Shown here one piece after another: positions 4,815 through 32,800 of a DNA stretch of 36,653 bases (position 1 is its first letter; each line of letters starts with the position of its first letter). The translations under genes were made by a program, and so were the position numbers. The notes below the pieces were generated by a model. That model made no database searches and had not been told where the DNA came from. It was given only the letters and a program-made list of their open reading frames with translations. The stretch lies in the sequence record SRR31156797_7399, one strand, 5' to 3'.

Positions 4815-6056
4815 ATGGCAAAAAAACAAGGATTTACTACTTCATCTATACATACCCCTTTCCCTAAAAGTGATGCGTATAATGCGTTGCATATGCCTGT
4901 TTACGACGGAGTTGCATATGAATTTGAGTCTGCACAAGATATTGAAGATTCATTTACTGGAAAACAGATAGCCCACGCATATAGTAGGACTTCTAATCCA
5001 ACGGTAGAACATTTTGAAAATAAATTAAAGGCTATTACCGGAGCGCATTCGGTGGTGGCATTGTCAGCAGGTATGGCTGCTATTTCAAATGCGTTTTTGG
5101 CACTTGTAGAAAGAGGCGGAAATATAGTCTCTTCCAATCATTTGTTTGGCCATACATATGCCTTACTTAAAAGTACAATTCAGCAATGGGGTATCGAGGT
5201 TCGGTTTGTTGATATGTCAGATTTAAATGCCGTAAAGGAAGCTGTGGATGAAAATACCCGTGTGTTGTTTTTTGAGACCATAACAAATCCACAATTAGAG
5301 GTGTTAGATATTAAGGAGTTATCTGATTTCGCACATTCAAAGGATATTGTTTTAGTGGCTGATACAACAGTAACGCCTCCTTATGTTTTCGATTCTTCAA
5401 AATTTGGAGTGGATATAGAGGTGATGTCTACAACTAAATTTATTTCCGGTGGTGCCGCAGCAGTTGGTGGTGCTGTTGTTGATAATGGTACATTTGATTG
5501 GAAAAAGCTACCTGCCTTGCAAAGTTGGGAGGAGAAATTCAATAAAAATGCTTTTGTGGCCAGAATCCGAAAAGAGATATTCCGCCACTTAGGAGGTTGT
5601 ATGACTGCACATACAGCACATTTTTTAAATCTAGGTTTAGATATTTTAGCCTTAAGAGTGGATCGCTGTGTAGATAATTGTTTAAAATTAGGAGAGTTCT
5701 TTCAGAATAATACAAAAATAAAAGGTGTTAATTATCCGGGATTAAAGGATTCACCGAGTTATGAATTGTCTAAGCAACAGTTTTCGGGAAAACCGGGTGC
5801 TATCATGACAATTGATCTTGAATCGCACGAAAAATGCTATTCGTTTTTAGATGCGCTTCAAATTGTAAGAAGAGCAACGAATTTAAATGATAATAAATCC
5901 TTAATTATTCATCCGTGGTCAACGATCTATTCAGAGTTTAGTGATGAGGAAAAAATTGGGATGGGTATACGCGATACGATGTTAAGACTGTCTGTTGGAA
6001 TTGAAGATGTGGAAGATCTGATTGCTGACTTTGAACAGGCTTTAAATCATGTTTAA
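4815..6056 (+). CDS. O-acyl-homoserine sulfhydrylase-like PLP enzyme (Cys/Met metabolism, MetZ/MetY family)
   Basis: YSRTSNPT, SAGMAAI, ETITNP, STTK (PLP lysine), KSLIIHP, LRLSVGIED. Confidence 0.88.
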   Translation: MAKKQGFTTSSIHTPFPKSDAYNALHMPVYDGVAYEFESAQDIEDSFTGKQIAHAYSRTSNPTVEHFENKLKAITGAHSVVALSAGMAAISNAFLALVERGGNIVSSNHLFGHTYALLKSTIQQWGIEVRFVDMSDLNAVKEAVDENTRVLFFETITNPQLEVLDIKELSDFAHSKDIVLVADTTVTPPYVFDSSKFGVDIEVMSTTKFISGGAAAVGGAVVDNGTFDWKKLPALQSWEEKFNKNAFVARIRKEIFRHLGGCMTAHTAHFLNLGLDILALRVDRCVDNCLKLGEFFQNNTKIKGVNYPGLKDSPSYELSKQQFSGKPGAIMTIDLESHEKCYSFLDALQIVRRATNLNDNKSLIIHPWSTIYSEFSDEEKIGMGIRDTMLRLSVGIEDVEDLIADFEQALNHV

Positions 6057-7383: not shown

Positions 7384-7812
7384 ATGAAATTTTCAAAGAA
7401 AACAGAATATGGTTTAAGGTTTTTACTCGCTCTTGCAGAATTAAGTGAGGGGAGGTTTATGGGAATTTATCAAATTTCGTTAAGACACCAGATACCTATG
7501 AAATTTTTGGAAGCTATTGCTGTAGCTCTAAAAAAAGCCGGATTTTTAGATGTGAAAAAAGGAGCTGGAGGTGGTTATCGTTTGAGATTCAGACCAAGTG
7601 AAATAACCCTTTTAATGGTTTTTGAATGTCTTGAGGATGCCTATAAAAGAGAGCTGGATATTTCAGGAGATATATCAAGTAATCAAAAAGCTGTGGCTTT
7701 GGTATTGAATGAATCTATTGCTGGTGTCAGAGAAGTTTTAGCAGAAAAAACGCTGGCCGATATACAAAAGCAATATAAAGACTTGAATGAAAGTTTAATG
7801 TATTATATATAA
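7384..7812 (+). CDS. Rrf2 family transcriptional regulator, CymR-like
   Basis: SKKTEYGLR and KGAGGGYRL wing. Only one Cys, so no IscR Fe-S ligand set. C-terminal LMYYI resembles CymR MFYI. Confidence 0.88.
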   Translation: MKFSKKTEYGLRFLLALAELSEGRFMGIYQISLRHQIPMKFLEAIAVALKKAGFLDVKKGAGGGYRLRFRPSEITLLMVFECLEDAYKRELDISGDISSNQKAVALVLNESIAGVREVLAEKTLADIQKQYKDLNESLMYYI

Positions 7813-7837
7813 TATGTATTAGTTATTAAGTATCGGT

Positions 7838-8953
7838 TTAAACTTTAAATATTCGTATGTTTTCTATTAGTTTAGATGATTGTTTTGAGAGTTGAACTGA
7901 ATTTCCAGACATTTCATCTGCCAATTTAGCATTTGATTGGGTAATTCCGTTAATGTCATTAATAGCCGAAATAATTTGTTCAGAACCAGCTTTTAATTCT
8001 TTGCTGGCTACACTAATTTCAGCCATCAAATTCATGGTTTCGTTCATGCTTGGGATCGTTTCTTCCAGATTTTTACTTACATTTTCGGAAAGAACCTGCC
8101 CATTTGATAATATTTCCTTGATCTCGTTAGATGCTTTTTGACTGTCTTCTGCTAATTTTCTTACCTCACCAGCAACAACATTAAAACCTTTACCAGCCTC
8201 TCCTGCTTGTTTAGCTTCAATTGAAGCATTTAATGCCAGTAAATTGGTTTGACTGGCAATCTCGTCAATGACCTTAATTTTCTCGTTAATTGTTTTCATT
8301 GCCTGCAATAATTCCTGTGCACTTTGATTGCTAATCTCAAGTTTTTGGTTGGTACTTTCGGTATAGCTTTTTGTTTTTTCAGAATTATTGTAAGATGAGT
8401 CTATGTTAGCATTCATTTCCTCCATGGAAGCTGATATTTCTTCAATAGCACTGGCTTGTTCGTTGTTGCCATGGGATAGATTCTGAGACATGTTATTAGT
8501 TTGCTGTCCCATAGAATCTACCTGAGAAGCAGTAGTGTTTATTGTTTTTAGAGACGTGCCAAACATGTCGTTTAGTTTGGTAATGCTAAGACTTAAATCT
8601 TTTAGTTCACCCTTGTAGTTATATTTTTCCTTTTGTTTGTGAGCACTGAAATCGCCTGAAGCAATGATGGCTGTTTTAGAAATGAGCTCTTTCATAGGCC
8701 TTCTAACCCATCTTGATATTAAAAAGAGTAAAATTGCCGTAACGGATAATCCTGAGACAAGAGCTGCAATAAATGGGTATTGATCTGGGTATGCGTAATG
8801 AATTTTACTATTCACTACCGTAAAGAAAACATTGGCTATCCAAACGATGCCAATTCTTAAGAAAATGCTTTTTTTAAATAGAATTCTTAATACAATGCTA
8901 CCAACTATAATAGCTGCAATAAATACAATAAATAAGTTTAAAAAACTTCCCAT
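7838..8953 (-). CDS. Methyl-accepting chemotaxis protein (3 TM, HAMP, signalling domain)
   Basis: [37 protein letters not shown] hairpin tip and [15 protein letters not shown] methylation helix. Start set at ATG 8953 because the ORF-track start overlaps the promoter. Confidence 0.9.
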
Positions 8954-9022
8954 ATTAATTAATCTCTCTCCAGTGAAATTGTAAATGTGTTCTATAACGA
9001 AGCTTGTTGTGCAAATGTTGCA

Positions 9023-9030
9023 CAAATATA
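9023..9030 (-). promoter_or_regulatory. -7 element (TATATTTG) for the MCP gene
   Basis: CAAATATA on + strand. Confidence 0.6.
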
Positions 9031-9179
9031 GATTTAATATAAGGATGAGGATTAAAATAAAAGTTAAAAATGGTTTCTTTTATATTGTGCTATAGGGTTA
9101 CTAATGAAATAATTCGCTAAATTTTAATACGATTAGCAGAAGTTAGCGCATGTGAGTAGGTATGTATTTGTGCGGTTAA

Positions 9180-9200
9180 AGCCTATTAAAAGAATAGGCT
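9180..9200. promoter_or_regulatory. Perfect palindrome, candidate Rrf2/CymR operator
   Basis: AGCCTATT-AAAAG-AATAGGCT (8-5-8) in the divergent MCP/cysK intergenic region. Confidence 0.4.
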
Positions 9201-9355
9201 ATTAAAAGGGGTGAATAATAATTTAAAAATATAGTGTTAAGTGTCATTAAATGAGAGGTTATGGTGATTTTTGTATTTGGAAATAGTATCAGAAAGCATA
9301 TGTAAATAGTATGTTATATGCAGCTTTGTCTATTGTGAGATCATTATACTTCTTC

Positions 9356-9363
9356 TATGTTTG
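9356..9363 (+). promoter_or_regulatory. -7 element (TATGTTTG) for the cysK-cysJ-cysI cluster
   Basis: Exact TAnnTTTG 45 nt before the cysK ATG. Confidence 0.7.
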
Positions 9364-9408
9364 CATCAGAATCAATTGTTAAACGAAAACAAATAAAAGC
9401 ATATAATT

Positions 9409-10326
9409 ATGAGTGGAATTGCACAAAATGTAACAGAATTAATTGGTAACACCCCTTTGGTACAAATTAATAGATTAAATGAAGGAGGTGCACAAGTTGT
9501 AGCCAAATTAGAATTTTTTAACCCTGCTAGTTCAGTAAAAGACCGTATTGCTAATGCAATGATTGAAGCAGCTGAAAAAAGTGGAAAACTGGATAAAGAT
9601 ACTGTAATAGTAGAACCAACAAGTGGAAATACAGGAGTAGGGCTTGCTTTTGTAGCCGCTGTAAAAGGATACCGATTAATCTTAACTATGCCTGAGAGTA
9701 TGAGCATCGAACGTAGAAAGTTGTTGAAGAAATTCGGTGCAGAGTTGGTTTTAACTCCTGCCTCTCAAGGTATGAAGGGTGCAATTTCAAAAGCGCAGGA
9801 AATTGCGGAAGAACACGAAAATGCATTTATTCCACAGCAATTTGATAACCCTGCTAACCCAGCTATTCATAAAGTAACAACTGCTGAAGAAATTTGGAAA
9901 GATACAGAGGGAAAGATTGATGTTTTTGTGGCTGGTGTTGGAACCGGAGGAACAATCACAGGAGTCGGAGAGGCATTAAAAGAAAAGAATCCGGATTTAA
10001 AAGTAATTGCTATTGAACCGGCTGATTCTCCTGTTATATCAGGTGGTCAACCTGGGCCTCACAAAATTCAAGGTATTGGAGCCGGATTCATTCCATCAAA
10101 TTTAAATACAGAAGTAATTGATGATGTGGTAAAAGTTTCAAATGAAGATGCCGTTCAAACAAGTCACAAAGCAGCTATTGAAGAAGGTATTTTATGTGGT
10201 TACTCTTCAGGTGCTGCGTTATGGGGAGCATTGGAAGTAGCCAAAAGACCTGAATTCGAAGGGAAACGTATTGTGGTTATTTTACCAGATACAGGCGAAC
10301 GATATTTAAGTAGCTTTGAAATTTAA
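9409..10326 (+). CDS. cysK: Cysteine synthase A (O-acetylserine sulfhydrylase)
   Basis: IGNTPL, SVKDR (PLP Lys), [33 protein letters not shown]. Confidence 0.97.
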
Positions 10327-10513
10327 GAACTTCATCGAATAATTTATCAGCTAAAGCTAAGCTGAATAATTTCAATATTAACTTAAGGTTTATATGGGTG
10401 TAAAACAAGATCTGAACCAAGGAGGTTTCGATCTTGTTAGAAACCCGAAAGATGATTGACTTTATAGATATAGAAGTCATAATAGGATTGTATTGTCCAA
10501 TAATTAATAAAGT

Positions 10514-12313
10514 ATGATTCAGGGAATTAAAAATATATTTACGACAGAGCAAGTTGAGCAAGCGCAAAAACTATATGCTTCTTTATCTACAGAGCAAAAG
10601 CTTTGGTTGTCTGGTTATTTGGCAGGTTTAAATCAGTCAGGTGGATTGTTGGAAAGTGATTTGGTTAATGGTGTTAATGGTCAAATAAGTGTAAATTCTG
10701 CCATTGAAAATGAATTAAACCTAACTATTTTATATGGTACTCATACAGGTAATTCAAAAATCTTAGCAGAGCAAACACTTGAAATTGCTCAACAAAGAGG
10801 AATTAAAGCAACAGCTATTAGTTTGCAGGAATATAAAGTACGTAAGTTAAAAGAGGAACAAAACCTACTAGTAATTGTTTCCACCCATGGAGAGGGAGAA
10901 CCTCCTGCATCTGCTGAAGATTTTTATAATTATATATTCGGCAAAAAAGCACCTAAATCGTTGAATGTAAATTATGCTGTAATTGGCTTAGGGGATAGTA
11001 GTTATGCCAAGTTTTGCCAAACAGGGAAAGATATTTATCAGCAAATAGGTGTTTTAGGAGCACAGTCAATTCATGATTTAGTTGAGCTTGACGTTGATTT
11101 TACTGATCAAATTGAAGATATTTTACCAACTATAGTTGATAACTTTCAAAAGGCATCTGGCATTGAGGTTAAGCCTGAACCGGAAAATGTTGCAACAAAG
11201 AAACTTGGCTTAAACGAATGGGTTGAAGTGGAGGTTCTTGAAAAAGTTTTGCTAAACGGTAAAGGGTCCGACAAAGAAACGTATCATATCGAATTAGATA
11301 TTGAGGATGCTGGTCTGGTTTACAAAGCAGGAGATGCATTGGAAGTAGTGGCTGTTAATGATCACGAATTGGTCGACGGAATTTTATCAGTTTTAGATAT
11401 AGATAGAAAAGAAGAAATCTTACAGGGAGAAAAAAATATTACTATCGAAGAGGCTTTAACCTCAAGCTTTGAATTAACAGTAATTACACGACCCGTTATT
11501 ACTAAGTATGCAGAAAGAGCTAAAATTAAAGAATTGGACGATATTATAGGCGATGAGGAACGACTTCAGGAATATTTATATGGAAGAGATATTCTTGATT
11601 TAATTAATGATTTTCCTATTGAGCTTAAAGCAGAGGAATTGGTTCAGTTTTTAAGAAAACTGCCACCAAGGTTGTATTCTATTTCATCCAGTTATGAGTT
11701 AAATCCAGATGAGGTACATATTACGGTTGGAGCAGTGAGGTATAACCTAAACGATCGTGATCATAATGGTGTGTGCTCAGGTTATTTGGCGGATAGTATT
11801 CAGGAAGGATCGACTGTTAAGGTTAGAGTTAAGCCAAATCTTGGCTTTAAATTGCCTGAAGATGAAAAAGCACCAATTGTAATGGTTGGACCGGGAACTG
11901 GAATTGCACCTTTTCGCTCGTTTTTACAGGAGCGCGAAGCTAAAGAGTCGGAAGGTAGAAACTGGTTGTTCTTTGGAGATCAGTATTTTGAAACAGACTT
12001 TTTATATCAAACAGAATTATTACAATATAGGAAAGAAGGATTGGTTAATAAGCTGGATGTTGCATTCTCCAGAGATCAGGAAGAAAAAGTTTATGTACAG
12101 GATAGAATGCAGGAGAATGGTGAGGAACTTTATAACTGGTTAAATGAAGGGGCGCATTTTTACTTGTGTGGTGATATGAAACGAATGGCTAAAGATGTAA
12201 AAGAGACTTTACTACAAATAATTAAACAATACGGCAATTTATCTGAAGAGCAGGCCAATGAATATTTTAAAAACCTAAAGTCGGCAGGACGTTTTCAGGA
12301 GGATGTTTATTAA
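10514..12313 (+). CDS. cysJ: Assimilatory sulfite reductase (NADPH) flavoprotein subunit
   Basis: LWLSGYLAG N-terminus, flavodoxin YGTHTGNS/STHGEGEPP, RLYSISS, GPGTGIAPFR, YLCGD, RFQEDVY. Confidence 0.96.
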   Translation: MIQGIKNIFTTEQVEQAQKLYASLSTEQKLWLSGYLAGLNQSGGLLESDLVNGVNGQISVNSAIENELNLTILYGTHTGNSKILAEQTLEIAQQRGIKATAISLQEYKVRKLKEEQNLLVIVSTHGEGEPPASAEDFYNYIFGKKAPKSLNVNYAVIGLGDSSYAKFCQTGKDIYQQIGVLGAQSIHDLVELDVDFTDQIEDILPTIVDNFQKASGIEVKPEPENVATKKLGLNEWVEVEVLEKVLLNGKGSDKETYHIELDIEDAGLVYKAGDALEVVAVNDHELVDGILSVLDIDRKEEILQGEKNITIEEALTSSFELTVITRPVITKYAERAKIKELDDIIGDEERLQEYLYGRDILDLINDFPIELKAEELVQFLRKLPPRLYSISSSYELNPDEVHITVGAVRYNLNDRDHNGVCSGYLADSIQEGSTVKVRVKPNLGFKLPEDEKAPIVMVGPGTGIAPFRSFLQEREAKESEGRNWLFFGDQYFETDFLYQTELLQYRKEGLVNKLDVAFSRDQEEKVYVQDRMQENGEELYNWLNEGAHFYLCGDMKRMAKDVKETLLQIIKQYGNLSEEQANEYFKNLKSAGRFQEDVY

Positions 12314-12451
12314 TCCATCAATAGCGATTTACTAAATAAAGGAACAGACAATAATGTTATGTGGATGTACAATTTTGTATTTGGAGTAGAACTTATAACT
12401 CATCTTTAATCTAACACAATCTGGTTTTTACCACATAAAAAGCATAATATA

Positions 12452-14164
12452 ATGGCAGAAGTTATCAATAACGAAATATTTCCATCCTGGAATCCATCAG
12501 ATGTAGAAGGGATTAAAATTAGAAGTAATTACTTAAGAGGAACGCTTGAGGAAAGTCTTAACGATTTAGCTACAGGTTCCATAGCTGAAGATGATACGCA
12601 GTTAATTAAATTTCATGGAAGTTATCAGCAAACCGACAGAGATTTGGATATTGAACGCAAACGTCAGAAGCTAGAGCCTTTATACAGTTTTATGATCAGG
12701 GTGAGAATACCGGGAGGTGTAGCTACTGCTGATCAGTGGATTGCTTTCGATGAAATTGCGAAACAGCATAGTAATACATTAAAATTAACCACACGACAGG
12801 CATTTCAGTTTCATGGAGTAATAAAGCGCAATCTAAAAAAAACCATGCAGGGTATAAATGATGCACTCCTTGATTCTATTGCCGCCTGTGGTGATGTTAA
12901 CCGAAATGTGATGTGTACAACCAACGAGGGAATGTCACCACTTGTACCTGCCGCATATCAAATGTCAAAAGATATTAGTGATCACCTGTTGCCTCGTACC
13001 ACAGCCTATCACGAAATCTGGTTAAACCAAAAGTTATTAGTAGATGGAAAGCAGGATGAGGAGCCAATTTACGGTAAAACTTATTTACCTCGTAAATTTA
13101 AAATTGCCATTGCTATTCCTCCGTATAATGACACTGATATTTTTTCGAACGATATAGGTTTGATAGCGATTGGAAAAGGAGATAAACTGGAAGGATTTAA
13201 TATTGCGATCGGAGGAGGATTGGGTATGACATTTACTGAACCCGGAACTTATCCGAGATTAGGCGATGTAGTGGGGTATGCACCTTACGACAAAACACTT
13301 GAAGTTGTAGAAGAGATTGTAAAGCTGCAACGCGATTATGGAAATAGAGAAAATCGTAGAAAAGCAAGATTAAAGTATACAGTGGATCGTTTAGGTCCTG
13401 CTGAGTTTAAAGGTTTGCTTGAGAAACGCTTAGGTTATTCTTTAGAAAAAGCAAAACCATATAAATTCACAAGTAATGGAGATGTTTTTGGTTGGAAAAA
13501 AGCCAAAAACGGAAAGTGGTCATTAGGTCTTTATATCGAACATGGAAGAGTAAAAGATGTTCCGGGTTATGAATTAAAAACAGGTCTTCGTAAAGTGGCT
13601 GATCTAAAGAAATCCGATTTTCGTTTAACAGGAAATCAAGGTCTGGTTATTGGGGGAATTAAGGATGAAGATAAAAAGGAAATTGAAACGATTCTTAAAG
13701 AATACAATATATGGCCTAAAAAGAATTTAAGCGCTGCCCGAAAGCATGCCCTGGCATGTGTGGCGCTCAATACTTGTACTATGGCATTTGCTGAGGCAGA
13801 AAGGTATTTGCCTTCGCTAATGGATAAAATAGAGGTAATTCTGGCCGAAAATGACTTGACCAATGATGATATTCTCATTCGAATGACTGGTTGTCCCAAT
13901 GGATGTGGTAGACCTTTTTTGGGTGAAATAGGTTTTGTGGGGCGTTCCCTAGGGAAATACAATATGTATTTGGGAGCAGGTTTTGCGGGAGAGCGTTTAA
14001 ATACGCTTTACAAAGAAACCTTATCAGAAGAAGAAATTTTGGATGAGTTAAAGGTGCTCTTACCTCGATATGCTAAGGAAAGAGAAAAAGGAGAGCGATT
14101 TGGTGATTTTGTCGGCAGAGTAGGCATTATAGAACATCAAAGAGAGATTCATCAGCTTGATTAG
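12452..14164 (+). CDS. cysI: Assimilatory sulfite reductase hemoprotein subunit
   Basis: IKFHGSYQQ, LTTRQ, ACGDVNRN, YLPRKFK, and siroheme/4Fe-4S ligands CVALNTC and GCPNGC. Confidence 0.96.
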   Translation: MAEVINNEIFPSWNPSDVEGIKIRSNYLRGTLEESLNDLATGSIAEDDTQLIKFHGSYQQTDRDLDIERKRQKLEPLYSFMIRVRIPGGVATADQWIAFDEIAKQHSNTLKLTTRQAFQFHGVIKRNLKKTMQGINDALLDSIAACGDVNRNVMCTTNEGMSPLVPAAYQMSKDISDHLLPRTTAYHEIWLNQKLLVDGKQDEEPIYGKTYLPRKFKIAIAIPPYNDTDIFSNDIGLIAIGKGDKLEGFNIAIGGGLGMTFTEPGTYPRLGDVVGYAPYDKTLEVVEEIVKLQRDYGNRENRRKARLKYTVDRLGPAEFKGLLEKRLGYSLEKAKPYKFTSNGDVFGWKKAKNGKWSLGLYIEHGRVKDVPGYELKTGLRKVADLKKSDFRLTGNQGLVIGGIKDEDKKEIETILKEYNIWPKKNLSAARKHALACVALNTCTMAFAEAERYLPSLMDKIEVILAENDLTNDDILIRMTGCPNGCGRPFLGEIGFVGRSLGKYNMYLGAGFAGERLNTLYKETLSEEEILDELKVLLPRYAKEREKGERFGDFVGRVGIIEHQREIHQLD

Positions 14165-14188
14165 TTATCAACTTTAAAGAATTGAAGG

Positions 14189-14419
14189 ATGCAAGAAAAA
14201 AGATATAGAACCTTATTAAAAACAATTTCGTGGAGAGCGACAGGTACGCTCGACACGTTTTTGATATCCTATCTGATTACAGGAAAAATAGGATTGGCAG
14301 CTTCCATCAGTGGAGTTGAGGTTTTTACAAAAATGATATTGTATTATTTCCACGAAAGAGCCTGGAACAAAATTAAGTACGGTAAGGAAAAGCCCAAGCA
14401 ACCTGAATATTATATTTAA
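14189..14419 (+). CDS. DUF2061 family small membrane protein
   Basis: R...KTISWR..GTLDT...TG....A.SI...E..TK..LYYFHERAW signature. C-terminal tail PEYYI. Confidence 0.88.
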   Translation: MQEKRYRTLLKTISWRATGTLDTFLISYLITGKIGLAASISGVEVFTKMILYYFHERAWNKIKYGKEKPKQPEYYI

Positions 14420-14505
14420 TTAACGATTTGCTTTTAAACGAATCGATGATTGTGCTGTTAGATATGTATTCAGTAAGATTTACAAGGATTAAGCTTTAAT
14501 TTTAA

Positions 14506-16269
14506 ATGTCGAAGATTATGGAAAGAATTAACATAGGTATACATGATAATCAGGAAAGATTAGTGACTAAAAACTGGTTAGAAGATATGTTGTCGATGCA
14601 TAATCTAAACATTGAATTTACAGTTTTTAATCAAGCTAAGGGCAGGCAAATTGCCTTAGAAGACAATGAGATAGTTCGTGATCAGTTAGTTGATGCAGTT
14701 ATATCTCAGGATATTGATGCTTATATTATTTCGGCAGATGAATTGCCCTATCCTTTGGATGCTGAGCTGGAAGTATATGCAGTATATGCCAAAGAAAAAG
14801 TATCTGAAGATCAGGTTTCAGAACATCCATTGAATCCATATTGGGCTATAGTAGGCAAAAAGGGAAGTTCGGAATTAAAAACTACATTTGAAAAAAATGA
14901 TGTTCGCGAAAAGTGGGGTTATGTGGTATTAGCTGGTTTTGGTCCTGGAGATCATCGTTTAATTACTCGTAAAGCAGAGTTTCACTTGCATAAAGCAGAA
15001 GTTATTTTTTATGATGATTTGGTAAATGATGAGTTTTTAAGACGTTTCTGTGCTAAAAAAATCTATGTTGGAAAGCGTAAAGGAAGACATAAATTCGATC
15101 AGGAGAAGATTAATGAATTAATGTATCAGGAAGCTTTAAAAGGTAAATGGGTTGTGCGTATCAAGGGCGGTGATCCTCTTATTTTTGGAAGAGGAGCCGA
15201 GGAATATCATTATTTACAAAGTCGATTAATTAAATCGGAAATTATTCCTGGTATTTCAAGTGCCTTTGCAGCTGCTGCAGGAGCGGTTATTCCTTTTACA
15301 GAAAGGTCATTAGCTTCATCGGTGGCGTTTTTATCGGGTCATGATTTGCATAAAATAAAAATACCTCAAGCAGATACCTTGGTTTTCTTTATGGGTGCAT
15401 CTAATCAGCAAGAGTTAGCTCAGAAAATTATTGATGAAGGTTGGGAGGAAGCGACTCCGGTTGGGGTGGTGCATAATGCATCTACACCGGAGCAACAAAT
15501 ATATCGTGGAAATCTGGAGGAATTAAGAGATAAAGGTTCAGGTTTGCCCTCACCATCCATCATTATTGTGGGTAAAACAGCAGGTGAATATGTTGGTAAA
15601 AATGGTAAGTGGTTATATACAGGAGCTTCTTTGGATGAGGTGAAATCCACAGTTCATTTAGTGCATACGCCATTAATTTCTATTGAAAGTATAGAAGATA
15701 CGGTACAAGTTGAACAATTTATAAATAATATATCCAATTATAATCGAATTGTATTCACCAACCGTTATGCAGTACAGCACTTCTTTAAGCATTTATATAG
15801 CTTAGGGAAAGATGCACGTAGTTTATGGAATATTACCATCGATTCTATTGGGAAAACTACTTCAAAAGCTTTGCGTCAACACGGTATTGTTACAGAACCT
15901 GTTGGTAAAAAAGAATCACTATCGGCCATGTTACAAGCCTACCAGGAAAATAAAGTGGCAGGAGAAAAAATATTGGTACCTGGTTCAAGTTTATCGACCG
16001 GAGATTTGCAGAGTGGGCTTGTAGAATTGGGTAACAAGGTAGATTCTTTGTGGGTTTATAATGTGGTGAAGAATAAAGCGATAATAAAGCAGAATTTATC
16101 ACGTTTCGAGGGAATTATTTTCTCATCACCAGCAACCGTAAAAGCATTTTTTGAAGTTTACGAGGAGATTCCTTCACATGTAAAAGTAAAATGCAGAGGA
16201 GCGCAGACAGAGAAGACTCTAAAGGCTGTGCTTAATGATTTCAGTAATGATACTTTAAGAGCTGTGTAA
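14506..16269 (+). CDS. cobA: Uroporphyrinogen-III C-methyltransferase / uroporphyrinogen-III synthase fusion with degenerate N-terminal HemC-like domain
   Basis: CobA motifs GFGPGD, YDDLV, YVGKR, RIKGGDPLIFGRG, PGISS. HemD-like IVFTN..AV..FF, IGKTT..AL, FSSPATV. The first ~135 aa resemble HemC domain 1. Confidence 0.9.
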   Translation: MSKIMERINIGIHDNQERLVTKNWLEDMLSMHNLNIEFTVFNQAKGRQIALEDNEIVRDQLVDAVISQDIDAYIISADELPYPLDAELEVYAVYAKEKVSEDQVSEHPLNPYWAIVGKKGSSELKTTFEKNDVREKWGYVVLAGFGPGDHRLITRKAEFHLHKAEVIFYDDLVNDEFLRRFCAKKIYVGKRKGRHKFDQEKINELMYQEALKGKWVVRIKGGDPLIFGRGAEEYHYLQSRLIKSEIIPGISSAFAAAAGAVIPFTERSLASSVAFLSGHDLHKIKIPQADTLVFFMGASNQQELAQKIIDEGWEEATPVGVVHNASTPEQQIYRGNLEELRDKGSGLPSPSIIIVGKTAGEYVGKNGKWLYTGASLDEVKSTVHLVHTPLISIESIEDTVQVEQFINNISNYNRIVFTNRYAVQHFFKHLYSLGKDARSLWNITIDSIGKTTSKALRQHGIVTEPVGKKESLSAMLQAYQENKVAGEKILVPGSSLSTGDLQSGLVELGNKVDSLWVYNVVKNKAIIKQNLSRFEGIIFSSPATVKAFFEVYEEIPSHVKVKCRGAQTEKTLKAVLNDFSNDTLRAV

Positions 16270-16373
16270 TTTAGCTTAAAAAATTCCCACTAAGCTCTAA
16301 AGGATTGATATTCCAAAATCAGTCTTCATTTGTGGTGCTTGACTAATTAAGTTATCACATTAAAAACAATGCT

Positions 16374-17366
16374 ATGTTTAAAAGATTCAGACAATTCAGG
16401 TTAAGTCCTGAAATAAGAGATAATCATGCAGATGTATCGGTGCATTCTCGTGATTTTATATATCCGTATTATGTAGTTAGTGGTGATTCCCGAAAGGAAA
16501 GCATTCCGAATTTAAAAGATGTATATCGTTTTTCATCGGATTTACTGTTACAGGATTTAGAAGAAACGGTTAGTTTGGGTATCAATAAAATAATATTGTA
16601 TGGACAGGCAGATGATAAAGATAAAACTAAGGATGGCTTAGGCGCTTTTAAGCACAATAATCTGATTGAACAGACTTTGAAAAAGATAAAAAATCAATTC
16701 CCTGAAATTACTGTTATTACTGATGTTTGTACTTGTGCTTATACAAACCATGGGCACTGTGGAGTGTTGAATGGATTAACCGTGGATAATGATAGATCTA
16801 TAGAAGTGCTGGCTAAAATTGCGGAAAGTCATGCCAGAGCAGGAGCGGATATAGTAGCGCCTTCGGCAAGAATGGATGGTCAGGTACAGGCCATTCGTCA
16901 GCGATTGGATGCAAGGCGCTTTAAGAATGTTCAGATAGCTTCTTTTGCAGCCAAGTATTCATCTTCGTTTTATGCTACTTTAAAAGATAAGACCAGTCAT
17001 ACAATCTCTTTTGGAGACAGACGTAATTATTGGATTGATTACCGAACTAAGGAGCAGGGGTTAGATCATATCAGTACAGATATAGAGGAAGGATCTGATT
17101 GGATTTTTGTGCAGCCGGCACAATCTTATCTCGATATTATATCTCGGGCTAAGATTAAACATCCTAAAACACCGATTGGTGCATTTCAGGTATTTGGAGA
17201 ATATGCTATGTTGGTTAATGCTGCAGAGCAAGGAATAGTTGACTTAAAGGCTTCAATGTTAGAGTCATTTACGGCTATAAAAAGATCAGGAGCCAATTAT
17301 ATTATATCCTATTATGCCAAAGAAATGGCGCGGTATTTAAATGGAGATGGATACTATGTGATTTAG
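16374..17366 (+). CDS. hemB: Porphobilinogen synthase (HemB)-like protein, probably catalytically impaired
   Basis: Retains Zn site DVCTCAYTNHGHCG, AGADIVAPS.RMDG and AKYSSSFY. However, VQP replaces VKP and QVFGEY replaces QVSGEY. Confidence 0.85.
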   Translation: MFKRFRQFRLSPEIRDNHADVSVHSRDFIYPYYVVSGDSRKESIPNLKDVYRFSSDLLLQDLEETVSLGINKIILYGQADDKDKTKDGLGAFKHNNLIEQTLKKIKNQFPEITVITDVCTCAYTNHGHCGVLNGLTVDNDRSIEVLAKIAESHARAGADIVAPSARMDGQVQAIRQRLDARRFKNVQIASFAAKYSSSFYATLKDKTSHTISFGDRRNYWIDYRTKEQGLDHISTDIEEGSDWIFVQPAQSYLDIISRAKIKHPKTPIGAFQVFGEYAMLVNAAEQGIVDLKASMLESFTAIKRSGANYIISYYAKEMARYLNGDGYYVI

Positions 17367-18344: not shown

Positions 18345-20324
18345 TTATCGAATGATGTTTACTTTACCTCTAAAGATAATATAATTATGTTCATTTTTCA
18401 ATATGATCGTATATAATCCTACGGAAATATTAGGAATTGAAATAAGTTGATTTTTATTCCCTTGTATACTTTGTTTATGTATAGTATTTCCACTGATATC
18501 AACAAGGAACAAAGTAAGTGCACCTTCATTTAAAGTAGATAGATCGATATTGAATTTACCCTTATTGGGATTTGGGTATACACTTATTGCAGTATTGTTA
18601 TTTGATGATAAGGATGTGGAGTAATCGTATGATAAATTCCAATCGTAGGTTTTATTCACTGCTTTTTCTCCAAGCCATCTTATATAGATAGTTTCTCCAT
18701 CCGCAATGGCATAGCTCAACTGAGTCTGAAAGCCACACTCATCATCTGCAGATTCAATGAGTGTATTGCAGTCGTTGTAAATTTCTAACTTAGTATCAAA
18801 TTCAGTTAAATCGCAGCTTTTAATCATCAGAATTTCATCTTCAGAAGAAGTGTATTCGTACCATTGATCATAGTCACTGGTGTGAGTAGTGGTATTATCT
18901 CCTAAATTACAAGTTAATGCCTGTGTACACTCTTCGCCAGGATTTAAATCCTCTCGATTTAAATTCCAATTGTAGGTGCCAGAAGTATATGTTTTTTTCC
19001 ATCTGATATAGTACGTTTCATTGGAATATACTTGAAATGTTGCAGATTCTTGTGTACTACATGAATTGTTAATTTGCAGATAAACAGATTCGTTGCAGCC
19101 TTTGTAAATTTCAAGGCTGGTGTTTTCTGAGGTTAAACCACAGCTAGATACAGTTACTCTTCCATTAGATTCTGGTGTGTAGGCAAACCATTGATCATAT
19201 CCGCTTGAGTGATCACAACTATTGGATCCTTCAATGGCGGTATAAGCTGATTCACAATAATATCCTTCTGTGTCTTCATTTTCTGTTAGAGTCCAGTTGT
19301 ATGATCCGGATGTATAGGTGTTGCTCCATTTTATATAGTAAGTTTCGCCTTGTGTACATGAGAAAGCAAGCTGAGACTGTGTAGAACAAAAATCGTTGTT
19401 TGCGCTTAATAAGGTGTTGCAATCCTCATATACTTCTACATAAGTATCTTCACTGGTCTGAGAACAAGATGAAACAATAATTTCTCCGGTAACATTTGCT
19501 GTATAAGCAAACCATTGGTTTACACCGGTACTGTGGTCGCATTGGTTGGTACCTATTGTTGCAATAAACGGATCGTCACAAAAGTCACCTTGCTCCGTTA
19601 AATCATCGGTCAAAATCCAATTATAGCTACCTGAGATATTATTGCTTTTCCATCTTATTAAATAGGTATTCCCGGCTGTAGTTTCAATAATTAATGATGA
19701 TTGATAATTACAGCTATTATTATTAAAATCAATCGGGTATCCATCGCAAGAATTATAAACCTCAACAAAGGTATCTTCAGTGGTTTGATCACATGTAGTT
19801 AATTTTAATTTACCGGTATTGACAGCCGTGTAGGTATACCATTGGTCAGCACCGGAACTGTGGTCAGCCAAATTACTACCAATGATTGCTGATTTGGGAT
19901 CATCGCAAAAGTCACCTTGTTTAGCAGCGTCTTCTGTTAACGTCCAGTTGTAGGCTTTATTTGTACTTGTAATACTAATGCGCCAACGAATGTAATAAGT
20001 ACTTCCTGTTGTACATTGAAAAACAACCTGAGATTGTGAATTACAATAATTATCATTAGATACTAATGGAATACTAACTCCACAAGCTGTATAAACCTGA
20101 ACATTTGTGTCTTCAGTTGTTGCACCACAATTAGAAATAGTGATCTTTCCATTCATGGTAGCAGTATATGTAAACCATTGTTCAATATCACCAGTATGAT
20201 CACTGGTGTTAGTTGATACTGATATTTCATTGGCAGCTACAGCTTCAGAACAACTGCTGCCACCTTGGGCAAAGACTTGACTCCCACTAAGGGATATCAA
20301 AAGAATGAGCAATAAATTTCTCAT
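18345..20324 (-). CDS. T9SS type A sorting domain protein with five Cys-containing ~109-aa repeats
   Basis: Signal peptide, five G..C..A...DH....QW..Y...C..T.EDT...Y..C...C..Q...TY.I.W...Y.W units, and CTD VYPNP...ISG...GLY...KV.IIR. Confidence 0.85.
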   Translation of the reverse strand: MRNLLLILLISLSGSQVFAQGGSSCSEAVAANEISVSTNTSDHTGDIEQWFTYTATMNGKITISNCGATTEDTNVQVYTACGVSIPLVSNDNYCNSQSQVVFQCTTGSTYYIRWRISITSTNKAYNWTLTEDAAKQGDFCDDPKSAIIGSNLADHSSGADQWYTYTAVNTGKLKLTTCDQTTEDTFVEVYNSCDGYPIDFNNNSCNYQSSLIIETTAGNTYLIRWKSNNISGSYNWILTDDLTEQGDFCDDPFIATIGTNQCDHSTGVNQWFAYTANVTGEIIVSSCSQTSEDTYVEVYEDCNTLLSANNDFCSTQSQLAFSCTQGETYYIKWSNTYTSGSYNWTLTENEDTEGYYCESAYTAIEGSNSCDHSSGYDQWFAYTPESNGRVTVSSCGLTSENTSLEIYKGCNESVYLQINNSCSTQESATFQVYSNETYYIRWKKTYTSGTYNWNLNREDLNPGEECTQALTCNLGDNTTTHTSDYDQWYEYTSSEDEILMIKSCDLTEFDTKLEIYNDCNTLIESADDECGFQTQLSYAIADGETIYIRWLGEKAVNKTYDWNLSYDYSTSLSSNNNTAISVYPNPNKGKFNIDLSTLNEGALTLFLVDISGNTIHKQSIQGNKNQLISIPNISVGLYTIILKNEHNYIIFRGKVNIIR

Positions 20325-28349: not shown

Positions 28350-29391
28350 TTGTGTTTTAGTATTGTTTCTGGCTTTGGCCGGATGCAATGGAACATCTCA
28401 AAATACCTCCAAAAGTATTTCGGAAAATATAGATTTACCCCAAAGTTTTAACGCGATAGGACTGGTATATCATCGCTTTGGCGATAATCGTTATCCTTCT
28501 ACCAATACACCTTTAGAACAATTTGAAAAGCAATTGCAATATCTGGAACAAAAAGGATTTAAAAGCTATACGGTTTCAGAGTTATTAACACAGGCTAAAG
28601 ATTCATCAAAGAAGGTTTTTATTACTGTTGATGATGGTTTAAAAAGCTTTTATAGCAACGGATGGCCGCTTTTCAAGAAATACAAAGTAAAAACAACCCT
28701 ATTCGTAAACACAGAAAGTGTGGGGTGGGGCGATTATTTGAGTTGGAAACAAATTAAGGAATTGTCTAATACCGGAGTTGAGATCGGTTCGCATTCGCAT
28801 AAACATACTTATTTCTTAAGCACGCCAGATTCAATCAGAAGAAGCCAGTTTATTGAAGATCTTGAAATCTCTGAAAAGTTGTTTAAAGATAGTTTAGGAT
28901 ATATTCCGCGTGTATATGCCTATCCTTACGGAGAGTTCGATGAAATGATGGCCAATGAATTAAAGAAAAGAGGATATCTTTTAGCTTTTGCACAAAATTC
29001 AGGCGTTTGGAGCGCATATTCAAATAGATATGGTATTCCGCGATTTCCAATAGCTGGCAATTATGTAGGGATGGAGCAGTTTAAATCCAAAGTAAATATG
29101 ACTAGCATGGCGATAGCAGATGAACTTCCATTTCCGAAAGTGCTTTCTGCAGGCGGTTCTTATAATAAAAAGTTTGTTATTGATTCCATTCAAACTTTTA
29201 AGGTCATAAATTGCTTCTTTCATAACAAGCCAAATTCAAAAGTCAGTCAATTTGAAGACGGTTCCCTATTTGTCAATTTGAAAATGCCAGCTAACTCCCG
29301 AAGAGTGTTGTTAACCTTTACTGGAAAAGATGAAAAAGGGAACTGGTGTTGGTGGAGTAAATTGTTTGTTAATCCTGCCCAAACTGAATGA
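28315..29391 (+). CDS. Polysaccharide deacetylase (CE4/NodB) lipoprotein
   Basis: Lipobox LAGC (start at one of ATG 28315/28318/28321), YHRF, TVDDG, HSHKH, YAYPYG, IPRF. Confidence 0.88.
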   Translation: MMMCGKKCWINSCVLVLFLALAGCNGTSQNTSKSISENIDLPQSFNAIGLVYHRFGDNRYPSTNTPLEQFEKQLQYLEQKGFKSYTVSELLTQAKDSSKKVFITVDDGLKSFYSNGWPLFKKYKVKTTLFVNTESVGWGDYLSWKQIKELSNTGVEIGSHSHKHTYFLSTPDSIRRSQFIEDLEISEKLFKDSLGYIPRVYAYPYGEFDEMMANELKKRGYLLAFAQNSGVWSAYSNRYGIPRFPIAGNYVGMEQFKSKVNMTSMAIADELPFPKVLSAGGSYNKKFVIDSIQTFKVINCFFHNKPNSKVSQFEDGSLFVNLKMPANSRRVLLTFTGKDEKGNWCWWSKLFVNPAQTE

Positions 29392-29822: not shown

Positions 29823-32800
29823 ATGCGTGCTTTATTACATTATAGTGGCATTGTATTATTGTTGCTCATTACAATAGGTGTTCAGGCTCAGCCAGATAAA
29901 ATATACTGGTTTGCAGCTCCTGATGTGAGTGATGTCCATGGAGATGGTCCTGCTATATTCAGAATTTCCACATACGAAACAGGAGCAAATGTAAGTATAT
30001 TTATTCCTGCCGAAAATAACCGGATATTAAGTCAGTTTAATGTCAAGCCTTTTTCTCAGTATAAAGTAGAATTGGATCCATTTACAGTAGAAAATTCACC
30101 AGCTAATAGCATAAATAATAAAGGAATATGTATCGTATCTGATGCTGAAGTCTCTGTTTATTATGAGGTGAGCAATCCTGACAATGCCGAAAAATTTATC
30201 CTGAAAGGAGATAATGCACTGGGAAAGTGGTTTTTTATTCCTTCTCAAACCGCTTATGGCAATTATCAAACTAATGGAAGTACAGCAAGCGAAAAGGCTG
30301 ATATTGTTGCAACAGAGGATCAAACATCAATTGAAATAATACCATCTGTTGATATTATCGGACATCAGGCGAATATTCCTTTTGAGATAGTGCTTAATAA
30401 AGGGCAAACATACTGTATTGAATGTGCCGATATTTCTGCAGAGGGAGCTTTGGCCGGAACGGAAATTAAAGCAAACAAACGCATAGCGGTGACTATTTCG
30501 GATGATGCGGTAATGGAAGATCCCGGAAGTAATCCAAATGATCTGATAGGAGACCAGTTAATTCCGGTAAATGCTCTTGGTCAGGAATATGTAGCTATTA
30601 ATACCAGTAAGGCACCTTCTAGTTTTAAAAATACCAATACTGTTCAAAAGGTATATGTTTTAGCTATTGAAGACAATACAATGGTATTCCTGAATAATAC
30701 GTCAAAAACTGCAAAACTTTTACAGAAGGGTGAAACAGCTGAATTTGATTTTTCGGACCATGCTGCATTTATTTATGCCACTAAAAAAGTTTATGCCTAT
30801 CAGATAACCGGATTAGTGAATAATGCAAAAAGTGCTGCTAACGAATTAGGTTCTGCCATATTACCCAGGTATTATTGTAATGGATCTTCCAGAGTTTCTG
30901 TTACAAGAGTCTTCGATAGAGACTTTTGGGTGAATATTGTAGTAAAACGAAAGGATATTAAGTCTTTTGTTTTTAAAGATAGTCAGGGTTATGAGTTGAG
31001 TTTGAAAAAATATATGAACAGCTGGCAAACAGTTCCTGGGCAATTAACCGGTCAAGATTCATGGGTGTGTTGTGCTGCCAATTTAAATGATCTAACAACA
31101 GGAACACCTTATTTTATTGAAAACACTTCCGGCGTTTTTCATTTATGTGTGCTCGACGAAAATGGTCTGAATGAAGAATCCGGATGTAGCAGTTTCGGAT
31201 ATCTAAGTAGTTATAATTCGTTTTGGGTAGATGGCCAACAAGAGGCTTGCAGAGGAAATGTTATTCCCCTGACAGCAAAAGGAGGATTTAGTAATTACAA
31301 ATGGTATTCTGATATTTCAGGATCAGAGGTGCTTTCTACGAGCTCTGAGTTAGCTGTAACAGAATCCGGTAAATACTATGTGGATGCGATAAATGATGAG
31401 GGTTGTATTTTTTCAGATACCATTGATGTCAATTTTATGTTGCCTGTAGTTGAATTAGGTAATGATACCACTATTTGTCAAGGTGAGAATCTGGATTACC
31501 TGCTTGATAATAATTACAGTAGTTATAGTTGGAGTAATGGTGCATCAGATTCTTCAACGCAAGTTAATACGCAGAATGCAGGTTCATTTATGTTGGGTGT
31601 TGAAGTTGCGGATGAATATGGATGTACAAATAACGATTCGGTACTGATTACAGTGTCAGAAGTGCCGGGAATTAAAATAAATAAAACGGAGGTTTGTGAA
31701 GGTGGTTTAGTTGTGTGCGAATCAGTTTTTGAGCGGTATGAATGGAGATTTGGAGGGGAATTAATAAATCAGAATGCTGCTCAAAGCTGGATTAAGCCTG
31801 AGGAATCAGGAGAGTATTCTATTAGTGGGTGGACGGATGATGGTTGTGTTGTATCTAGTGTTGTAAACTTATCTGTCCACCCCTTACCTCAATTTGAGTT
31901 TAAAAATCAATTTGCTTGCCAGGGAGACACCGTTGTGATTGAAGCACCTAAAAGTTTTGAGACTTATTTATGGAGTGACGGTTCTTCTTCACCTCAACTA
32001 GAATTGAATGATGACGATAATTACTGGCTGGAAGCTACGGATGAAAAGGGTTGTGTTTATCGCAATGGTGCTTCAATTACTTTTTATAAGCCTCTCGCAT
32101 TGGATTTAGGTCCTGATAGAGAGGAGTGCGAAGGAGTCTCGATATATATTGCTGCAGATTCAGCGTATTCAAATTACAATTGGTCTTTTATATCAGACGG
32201 AGATGTTGCCAGTCAGGAGATGCTGAATAAAGATTCGGATTACCGGATAGAAAGAGCTGGAGTAAACCATAGTGGATTATATCGTTTAGAAGCTATGGAT
32301 AAAAATGGCTGTATGGTTCACGATGAGGTAAACCTGAATATTATGCCTTCAGATTCATTGACCTTATCTGTGACTCAAAATTTATGTGAAGGTCAAACGG
32401 TGGATTTAATGGCTTCTGCAGGATATGAGAACTATGTATGGTATAAAGATAATGAACTCTTAAGCGAATATGAAAATACAAATCAAATATTAAATATTGA
32501 AAATGCAGGAGTTTATCGGGTTGAGGCCAGTTCGGGCGTTTGTATGCAGACAACTGAGATAGTAGTTGCAAGCCATTCCTTACCGGAAGTACAATTGGAG
32601 GCTGATGTAAGCTTGTGCGGAGATGAATCCAAAGAAATTAGTATAAATAGTTATCATTCTTCAAGTGGAGCAGACCTAGATTATTTATTCTGGAATGAAA
32701 AAGAAGATGTTCGTTTCAGTAATTGGCAAACGTCTTCCTTAGAAGTTTCACAGGCAGGAATATATAAGGTTACTGTTGTGGATGAATTTGGATGTAGAGC

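Follow-up and report, generated by a model that had tools for sequence, protein, structure and literature searches.

Why would three unrelated proteins encoded around a single cysteine synthase gene share the same C-terminal ending? This question is raised by a sulfur-assimilation locus spanning approximately 4.8-17.4 kb of a 36,653-nucleotide stretch of DNA from sequence record SRR31156797_7399, the whole of which is referred to here as the window. The host is a member of the Marinilabiliaceae (Bacteroidota); the nearest of the compared genomes is G001, and among the names borne by homologues are Saccharicrinis and Labilibacter. A preliminary description of the window had reported that an Rrf2-family regulator, a DUF2061 protein and a HemB-like protein, all flanking an intact cysK, end in Tyr-x-Ile (Y-x-I), and had proposed that CysK binds these tails in a manner sensitive to O-acetylserine (OAS). 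The gene arrangement and all three endings (MYYI, EYYI and YYVI, respectively) are indeed present, and the tails are conserved among relatives. We consider it, on balance, probable that all three tails dock in the active site of CysK, by the same mechanism as the tails of CysE and of Firmicute CymR. The four genes concerned are the following, with positions counted from the first nucleotide of the window.

7384-7812, plus strand: CymR-like Rrf2 regulator of 142 residues (PF02082, 5.5e-23), ending ...NESLMYYI, with the MYYI codons at 7798-7809
9409-10326, plus strand: cysK, O-acetylserine sulfhydrylase A, intact (TIGR01139, 471 bits against a cut-off of 351), ending ...SSFEI
14189-14419, plus strand: DUF2061 protein of 76 residues (PF09834, 3.5e-24), ending ...KQPEYYI, with the EYYI codons at 14405-14416
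16374-17366, plus strand: HemB (ALAD) paralogue of 330 residues (PF00490, 4e-108), ending ...NGDGYYVI, with the codons of an 8-residue extension at 17340-17363

Three C-terminal tails around cysK

Across the six-frame open reading frames (ORFs) of at least 60 residues in the window, six end in isoleucine: the three tailed proteins, CysK itself, and two short unsupported ORFs (1448-1693 and 29020-29223, both on the minus strand). No real coding sequence other than those of the three proteins ends in Y-x-I, as had been claimed, and the F-x-I ending of CysK is a point that the preliminary description left unmentioned. To place these endings against a background, we used the conserved ORFs near 80 DUF2061 loci; with DUF2061 and Rrf2 excluded, 16 of 650 such ORFs end in [YF]xI, of which 14 encode sulfur-locus proteins and 2 lie outside the sulfur genes. 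It is unlikely that the three tails arose by chance. A stronger argument than this background rate is conservation among relatives, on which the earlier proposal had been made to depend: the terminal isoleucine is kept in 82 of 88 relatives of Rrf2, 118 of 120 of DUF2061 and all 10 of the HemB-like clade, and the residue at position -2, which is tyrosine in all three window tails, is tyrosine or phenylalanine in the same proportions.

The ending of CysK was considered as a docking tail in its own right and rejected. Most loci of the genus encode a CysK ending in ...SS[FY]EI, and two have SSFEL; in other genera the protein runs on for one or two residues (SSFKID, SSFNID, SSFEIE, STFNIES). Because the terminal isoleucine is not conserved, this end is probably not a docking tail.

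The tails in the three protein families

The Rrf2 protein contains a single cysteine (C82) among its 142 residues, and therefore lacks the triad of cysteine ligands that would hold an iron-sulfur (Fe-S) cluster. Within the loci of G001 relatives it was found in 20 of 30, ending in MYYI in every one of the 20, down to 40% identity, and adjoining cysK in all of them. A wider set of database homologues ends in [YF]xI in 82 of 88 cases and in YYI in 76, and the tailed members include 130-residue proteins of approximately 30% identity, for which some sources use the name cysteine metabolism repressor. The protein thus combines the functional features of CymR, namely an Rrf2 fold (PF02082), no Fe-S cysteine triad and linkage to cysteine genes. 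The NCBIfam model for CymR (NF047409) aligns its positions 1-139 of 139 with residues 1-142, with a score of 62.6 bits against a cut-off of 195; because this score lies under the cut-off, we regard the protein as CymR-like and not as an orthologue by NCBI's standard. The closest known system is accordingly the CymR-CysK pair of Bacillus subtilis and Staphylococcus aureus, in which a cysteine-gene regulator of the Rrf2 family, likewise devoid of Fe-S ligand cysteines, is linked to cysK and, in S. aureus, ends in ...YMFYI where the window protein ends in ...LMYYI. The present case differs in that the host belongs to the Bacteroidota rather than the Firmicutes, and in that it is known from sequence alone. 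By this analogy, the Rrf2 tail is very probably a docking peptide for CysK, and this part of the proposal is the known CymR-type biology of Firmicutes rather than something new.

The DUF2061 protein matches PF09834 over all 52 profile positions (1-52; 85.4 bits against a cut-off of 23.1). Its AlphaFold2 (AF2) model is a helical hairpin formed by residues 5-31 and 34-61, with a mean predicted local distance difference test score (pLDDT) of 70.6; residues 65-70 and 73-76 fall below 50. The hairpin is thus followed by a flexible linker of 15 residues and then by the ...PEYYI ending. In relatives of G001 the protein ends in [DE]YxI in 26 of 30 cases, and among its best 120 database homologues 118 end in [YF]xI and 117 in [DE][YF]xI, while the approximately 10 residues ahead of the tail vary freely. 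The two untailed exceptions are tandem two-domain forms, and the tailed homologues include Arcobacter, Sulfurimonas, Sulfurovum and other Campylobacterota. Seventeen positions, mostly polar, are invariant.

Scanning the DUF2061 alignment against one genome per species yielded 80 loci, distributed over Bacteroidota, Campylobacterota, Ignavibacteriota, Lentisphaerota and Verrucomicrobiota, Spirochaetota, Omnitrophota and others, and in 66 of these 80 the protein ends in [YF]xI across phyla. Neighbours within 10 kb include CysI (60 loci), CysH (46), CysD (42), CysN (38), CobA (36), a SirC-like protein (33), Rrf2 (33), a cysteine synthase (29), CysJ (24) and MetY (23); DUF2061 thus belongs regularly to operons of assimilatory sulfate reduction. 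Tail-less forms stop just past the second helix (...WNxIKWGK) and occur mainly in Flavobacteriales, but also in Saprospiraceae, Crocinitomicaceae, a Thioglobus, a Melioribacter and one Victivallis. Since such forms occupy the same operons in CysM lineages, the core task of DUF2061 is likely to be independent of CysK. The conserved core indicates that the protein acts in sulfate activation or reduction in its own right, and the linker and tail appear to have been added as a regulatory module. It is likely, judging from these sequence patterns, that the DUF2061 tail is a CysK docking peptide.

The family as a whole comprises more than 5000 representative clusters, and of the best 150 of these, 21 are tailed. 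Its best-scoring representatives (P0329-P0476) are mostly tailless tandem two-domain proteins of 140-250 residues, which suggests that two hairpins together may make up the working unit. A membrane segment is usually assigned at a hydropathy of 1.6 or more. The maximum 19-residue Kyte-Doolittle value of the window protein is 1.46, in a stretch that spans the turn, and the median over the 120 homologues is 1.52; the membrane location that the preliminary description had claimed, and that the Pfam name predicts, is doubtful.

Other proteins of the same 80 loci occasionally bear comparable endings. CysN ends in [YF]xI in 5 of 38 loci (L091, L100, L115, L145 and L157, with ...EYSI, ...TFTI, ...TYCI, ...DFII and ...DFVI), an NAD-epimerase-like protein of Prolixibacteraceae ends in ...W[ATD]YRI in 5 of 16 (L131, L135, L139, L152 and L159), and one CysH carries a tail. 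The tailed CysN and epimerase-like proteins are possible further clients of CysK.

The third tailed protein resembles porphobilinogen synthase in matching the family over its full length (PF00490, as listed; NF006762, 364 bits against a cut-off of 297) and in retaining the Zn-site cysteine triad and the first active-site lysine. It departs from that enzyme in carrying glutamine for the lysine of MVKPA (FVQPA, also found in G001), FYATLKDK for the lid motif FYGPFRDA, VFGE for VSGE with phenylalanine in place of serine, and an extra tail of eight residues. The MVKPA lysine, the lid and the VSGE motif are presumably catalytic in the HemB family. The absence of the Schiff-base lysine and of an intact lid agrees with the earlier characterization of the protein as a tetrapyrrole pseudo-enzyme, which it probably is. 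The tailed clade consists of the 10 nearest among 120 homologues; all 10 end in LNGDx[YF][YF]VI, with L, N, G, D, V and I invariant, and the remaining 110 end approximately 8 residues sooner, without a tail. In five of five genomes of the genus there is, moreover, a housekeeping HemB that ends 8 residues sooner, alongside a second ALAD gene, and the tail is therefore an appendix.

Decay of the active site extends through this clade. All 10 tailed members have a degenerate lid, whereas each of the 8 aligned untailed HemB proteins of the Bacteroidales type has an intact one; the MVKPA lysine is kept in 4 of the 10, compared with all 105 of the other 110 homologues in which the pattern could be found (5 gave no match). 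Within the clade, the first lysine is lost in 2 of 10 members and the Zn cysteines are wholly or partly lost in 5 of 10. All 10 ORFs are nonetheless intact, at 325-330 residues, and the tail window ranks 28th of 323 for conservation. Because catalytic residues have been lost, the most likely role for this paralogue would be that of a CysK-controlled scaffold or regulator rather than a porphobilinogen synthase, and the sequence evidence slightly favours the reading of its tail as a CysK docking peptide. Any link to siroheme supply would be pure inference. One genome of the genus additionally encodes a third ALAD gene (G017:C2:883734-884684, L066), which is tail-less and has an Asp-rich rather than a Cys-rich metal site.

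Association with CysK and alternative readings

The cysteine synthase of the window is of the CysK type: CysM models of NCBIfam fall below their cut-offs, and the closest solved chains are CysK enzymes, some of them solved with partner peptides. Residues T71, S72, N74, T75 and Q144 are invariant in alignment A2. Excerpts of PMC12895370 give T71, S72, T75 and Q145, in Pseudomonas numbering, as the peptide contacts, and the window enzyme has T71, S72, T75 and Q144, corresponding to the residues reported there as necessary for peptide binding. According to the same excerpts, CysK partners insert their C-terminal tails into the active site, the terminal isoleucine accounts for some 80% of the energy of binding, its removal abolishes binding, and the known partners other than CysE are CdiA (GYGI), EGL-9 and CymR; CysM is not inhibited by CysK-type tail peptides (PMC12895370).

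Peptide measurements from other species bear on the endings observed here. As summarized in 10.1101/2024.09.19.614015, a decapeptide of S. aureus CymR (...GYMFYI) occupies the CysK active site with a dissociation constant (KD) of 25 nM, and its last five residues suffice for binding. Excerpts of PMC9547175 report that CysK of S. typhimurium binds MNYDI at 0.22 uM, compared with 11.8 uM for the native YGDGI, and that, among pentapeptides, those whose third residue is tyrosine are the best CysK ligands, CysM binding them only at millimolar levels.

The preliminary description had suggested that tails should co-occur with cysK, and the DUF2061 tail was found with the CysK and not the CysM type of enzyme. 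Of 29 loci that contain both DUF2061 and a cysteine synthase, 25 pair a tail with the CysK type and 4 pair a tail-less protein with the CysM type, with no discordant case. In-locus enzymes were typed by BLAST against one reference of each kind (the window CysK and the L156 CysM); NCBIfam models confirmed both references, two more in-locus enzymes as CysK and one more as CysM. At the level of genomes, CysK exceeded the TIGR01139 cut-off in 13 of 13 with a tailed DUF2061, whereas even sampling of the class gave a base rate of 16 of 201, with many of the remaining genomes giving best hits of approximately 290-325 bits that were of the CysM type where checked. This sample supplied the base rate and no independent cases of tailed DUF2061, since DUF2061 occurred in only 18 of its genomes, of which G001 alone gave a match extending to residue 76. 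A contrast within Ignavibacteriota follows the same pattern: Stygiobacter has the tail and an in-locus CysK, whereas Melioribacter is tail-less and has no CysK above the cut-off. Tails of DUF2061 and Rrf2 also occur together, with both proteins tailed in 21 loci and neither in 11, leaving a single discordant locus. By comparison, CysI, CysH, CysD and CysN cannot explain the tail, because they are found beside both tailed and tail-less DUF2061. The CysE-like acetyltransferase of the genus (308 residues; G001 and relatives, L071-L075) ends in G[GS]GI in five of five genomes, and scores 154 bits against a cysE cut-off of 211 and 149.2 against an EpsC cut-off of 150.

Several points weigh against the docking of all three tails, or reduce the weight of the evidence for it. 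The Rrf2 score lies far under the CymR equivalog cut-off, and the discordant locus just mentioned (L094) has a tailed DUF2061 beside a tail-less Rrf2. CysK was above its cut-off in 1 of 22 genomes with tail-less DUF2061, and its lack in 21 of 22 is near what the class base rate (8%) predicts, so that the association is one-directional; 10 of these 22 genomes were moreover called tail-less solely from matches ending at or before residue 70. The tail-less half of the comparison consequently carries little weight, and the informative half is that every genome tested with a tailed DUF2061 has CysK. G058 has a tail-less DUF2061 and nevertheless a CysK at 475 bits, and G070, also tail-less, probably has a CysK as well, in the form of a contig-end fragment scoring 289 bits over 187 positions. 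Genomes that are related do not count as independent, and the figures are therefore higher than the number of evolutionary events behind them. The HemB-like gene has a patchy distribution, as an accessory restricted to certain lineages: it is present in only 4 of 30 related loci, in which its fast evolution shows as 57-70% identity where CysK has 84-90%, and it could be a decaying duplicate.

Structure prediction adds weak support for a CysK-DUF2061 complex. The median score was 0.51 (runs of 0.51, 0.62 and 0.43), compared with 0.00 for the best of three controls; runs shared at least 52% of contacts, and the pLDDT of the partner was at least 72. Of 78 solved complexes, 51 reached the mark applied to such scores, as did 2 of 108 mismatched pairs, but the range up to 0.60 held only 5 of the 78 solved complexes and all 4 of the mismatches that passed (of 180), and a pass in this range is more often wrong than right unless the pairing is likely beforehand. 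The prediction came with no interface, and because CysK-peptide complexes have already been solved, the pass may also be due to likeness to those structures. Furthermore, the contacts between CysK and CysE go beyond the tail, so that the tail by itself may be insufficient for a stable complex.

Some of these observations would be accommodated if only the Rrf2 tail anchored CysK and the tails of DUF2061 and the HemB-like protein either were recognized by a different C-terminal reader (a further sulfur enzyme, for example, or a protease or adaptor of the PDZ type) or served the folding or oligomerisation of the proteins that bear them. Direct evidence of CysK binding exists just for CymR and CysE peptides, from other species, and both the pairing in G058 and the modest score of the predicted complex would fit such an arrangement. 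We nevertheless consider it unlikely, since the [DE]YxI ending of DUF2061 belongs to the class of sequences that bind CysK best in the experiments excerpted from PMC9547175, the tail occurs solely with the CysK type (25 of 25 loci, 13 of 13 genomes) in a class where CysK is rare, it is lost along with the Rrf2 tail, and no alternative reader was identified; CysI, CysH, CysD and CysN occur with and without tails. A second possibility, to which we assign a still lower probability, is a variant of the docking explanation rather than its opposite, because docking to CysK would still be required: the tailed proteins could be decoys encoded by the regulon itself, made upon derepression and competing with the repressor and CysE for CysK. 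Such decoys would sharpen or lock the response to sulfur starvation, with an octameric HemB shell acting as a multivalent sponge for CysK and the activities of the tailed proteins themselves left unregulated. All three genes lie within a locus presumably controlled by Rrf2, the HemB paralogue retains its tail although every member has lost catalytic residues, and Y-x-I peptides outcompete G-x-G-I approximately 50-fold according to the same excerpts (PMC9547175), with the CysE of the genus ending in GGGI or GSGI. Against this, the conserved polar core of DUF2061, with its 17 invariant positions, and the tail-less forms in CysM lineages imply that the protein has a function of its own. In addition, CysK is usually very abundant in cells, which would make its titration costly. 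Regulation of the partners by CysK is favoured over titration of CysK by its partners.

The remaining alternative is that the resemblance is coincidental or compositional, given that AT-rich genomes favour tyrosine and isoleucine codons and that the HemB-like extension might be meaningless on a decaying duplicate. The G+C content of the window (34-38%) and the patchy distribution and degenerate active site of the HemB-like gene could be read in this way, but the background of [YF]xI endings includes just two beyond the sulfur genes, the tails are kept across phyla of differing composition while the linkers vary, and the HemB-like ORF is intact, with its tail well conserved, throughout the clade. 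Coincidence is accordingly disfavoured, and we regard it as very improbable.

The surrounding locus and a proposed role of CysK as a shared sensor

The remaining genes of the locus place the three tailed proteins among enzymes of sulfite reduction and siroheme synthesis.

4815-6056, plus strand: MetY-like pyridoxal phosphate (PLP) enzyme, O-acetylhomoserine/O-acetylserine sulfhydrylase-like (PF01053, 7e-104), bounding the conserved sulfur locus on its upstream side
between the MetY-like and Rrf2 genes: Omp85-like protein
7838-9025, minus strand: methyl-accepting chemotaxis protein (MCP) signalling-domain protein (PF00015), divergent, between rrf2 and cysK
10514-12313, plus strand: cysJ, NADPH-sulfite reductase flavoprotein (Pfam)
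12452-14164, plus strand: cysI, NADPH-sulfite reductase hemoprotein (Pfam)
14506-16269, plus strand: cobA-hemD fusion (uroporphyrinogen-III methyltransferase and synthase), siroheme branch (PF00590 and PF02602, NCBIfam)

Synteny with relatives shows that the MetY-like gene belongs to the locus. The cysJ-cysI pair forms the operon context that separates cysK from DUF2061, an arrangement retained in relatives, and the cobA-hemD fusion is situated between the DUF2061 and HemB-like genes; its extra N-terminal region of approximately 135 residues (14506-14910) has no Pfam match at E values up to 0.01. The MCP-signalling-domain gene occupies the same position in most loci of the genus, and its product ends in a conserved ...FFK[FILM]-like motif. 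A 13-base word, TTTTGTATTTGGA, found at 9269-9281 (5' of cysK) and at 12373-12385 (5' of cysI), was considered as a candidate operator and dropped, because it is not kept at either place in eight related loci. Elsewhere in the window, a giant ORF (29823-36653, plus strand, open at its 3' end, at least 2277 residues) with IgGFc-binding-like and Ig-like (CHU_C-associated) domains probably encodes a large surface protein, and the translation of 18345-20324 (minus strand) is a 659-residue protein with approximately five repeats of a Cys-containing module of about 100 residues each.

Under the docking explanation, the carboxylate of the terminal isoleucine would fill the substrate carboxylate site of CysK, and the aromatic residue at -2 would pack in its hydrophobic channel. 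With the substrate site occupied in this manner, tail binding should therefore compete with OAS. In that role CysK would be a sensor subunit for OAS and sulfide shared among its partners. At low OAS, with sulfur in sufficient supply, it would remain bound to the CymR-like repressor, so that the locus stays repressed, and also to DUF2061 and the HemB-like protein, altering their activities; a build-up of OAS would release all of these partners jointly. The sequences establish the tails, their conservation, their link to CysK and the decay of the HemB active site, whereas this physical binding, the OAS sensitivity and each downstream effect are inferred.

This arrangement would share several features with known systems. 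In the cysteine synthase complex, the CysE tail occupies CysK, and the present case likewise involves a flexible tail ending in isoleucine, a partner of the CysK rather than the CysM type, an expected release by OAS, and a CysE-like protein of the genus with its own G[GS]GI end. It differs in that the partners are not serine acetyltransferases and in that position -2 is tyrosine (tyrosine or phenylalanine in relatives); the DUF2061 tails, which mostly have Glu or Asp at -3, are nearer to the optimised inhibitor MNYDI than to enterobacterial CysE (PMC9547175). Unrelated proteins with an Ile-ended tail that mimics CysE are also known, in the form of CdiA-CT of E. coli (GYGI) and EGL-9 of C. elegans, which binds CYSL-1 (PMC12895370). 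Whereas those proteins are a toxin and an animal oxygen sensor, the partners proposed here are components of a sulfate-assimilation operon, and unlike them DUF2061 keeps its tail over several phyla. The docking mechanism and the CymR case are thus already known, and for DUF2061 and the HemB pseudo-enzyme a partnership with CysK would be new. The statement in the preliminary description that it knew of no DUF2061 or HemB homologue described as a CysK partner is consistent with a search of the open-access literature. In that literature we found no paper combining CysK, porphobilinogen synthase and siroheme, none on DUF2061 that concerned CysK by title, and, by title and abstract, none on C-terminal isoleucine and CysK that dealt with DUF2061 or a HemB-like protein.

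A broader possibility, which we regard as slightly less likely than not, is that CysK serves as a general plug-in sensor of OAS and sulfide for the pathway, with DUF2061 under its control in at least six phyla and with tails grown independently on CysN, epimerase-like and HemB-derived proteins. If so, one active site would coordinate transcription, sulfate activation and siroheme supply. Docking of the three tails to CysK would, if correct, provide the first functional handle on DUF2061, a small protein of sulfate-assimilation operons in many phyla, and would bring Bacteroidota, Campylobacterota and others within the range of the CymR-type control of cysteine genes known from Firmicutes. It would also suggest that post-translational control by CysK reaches past CysE into sulfate reduction and cofactor supply.

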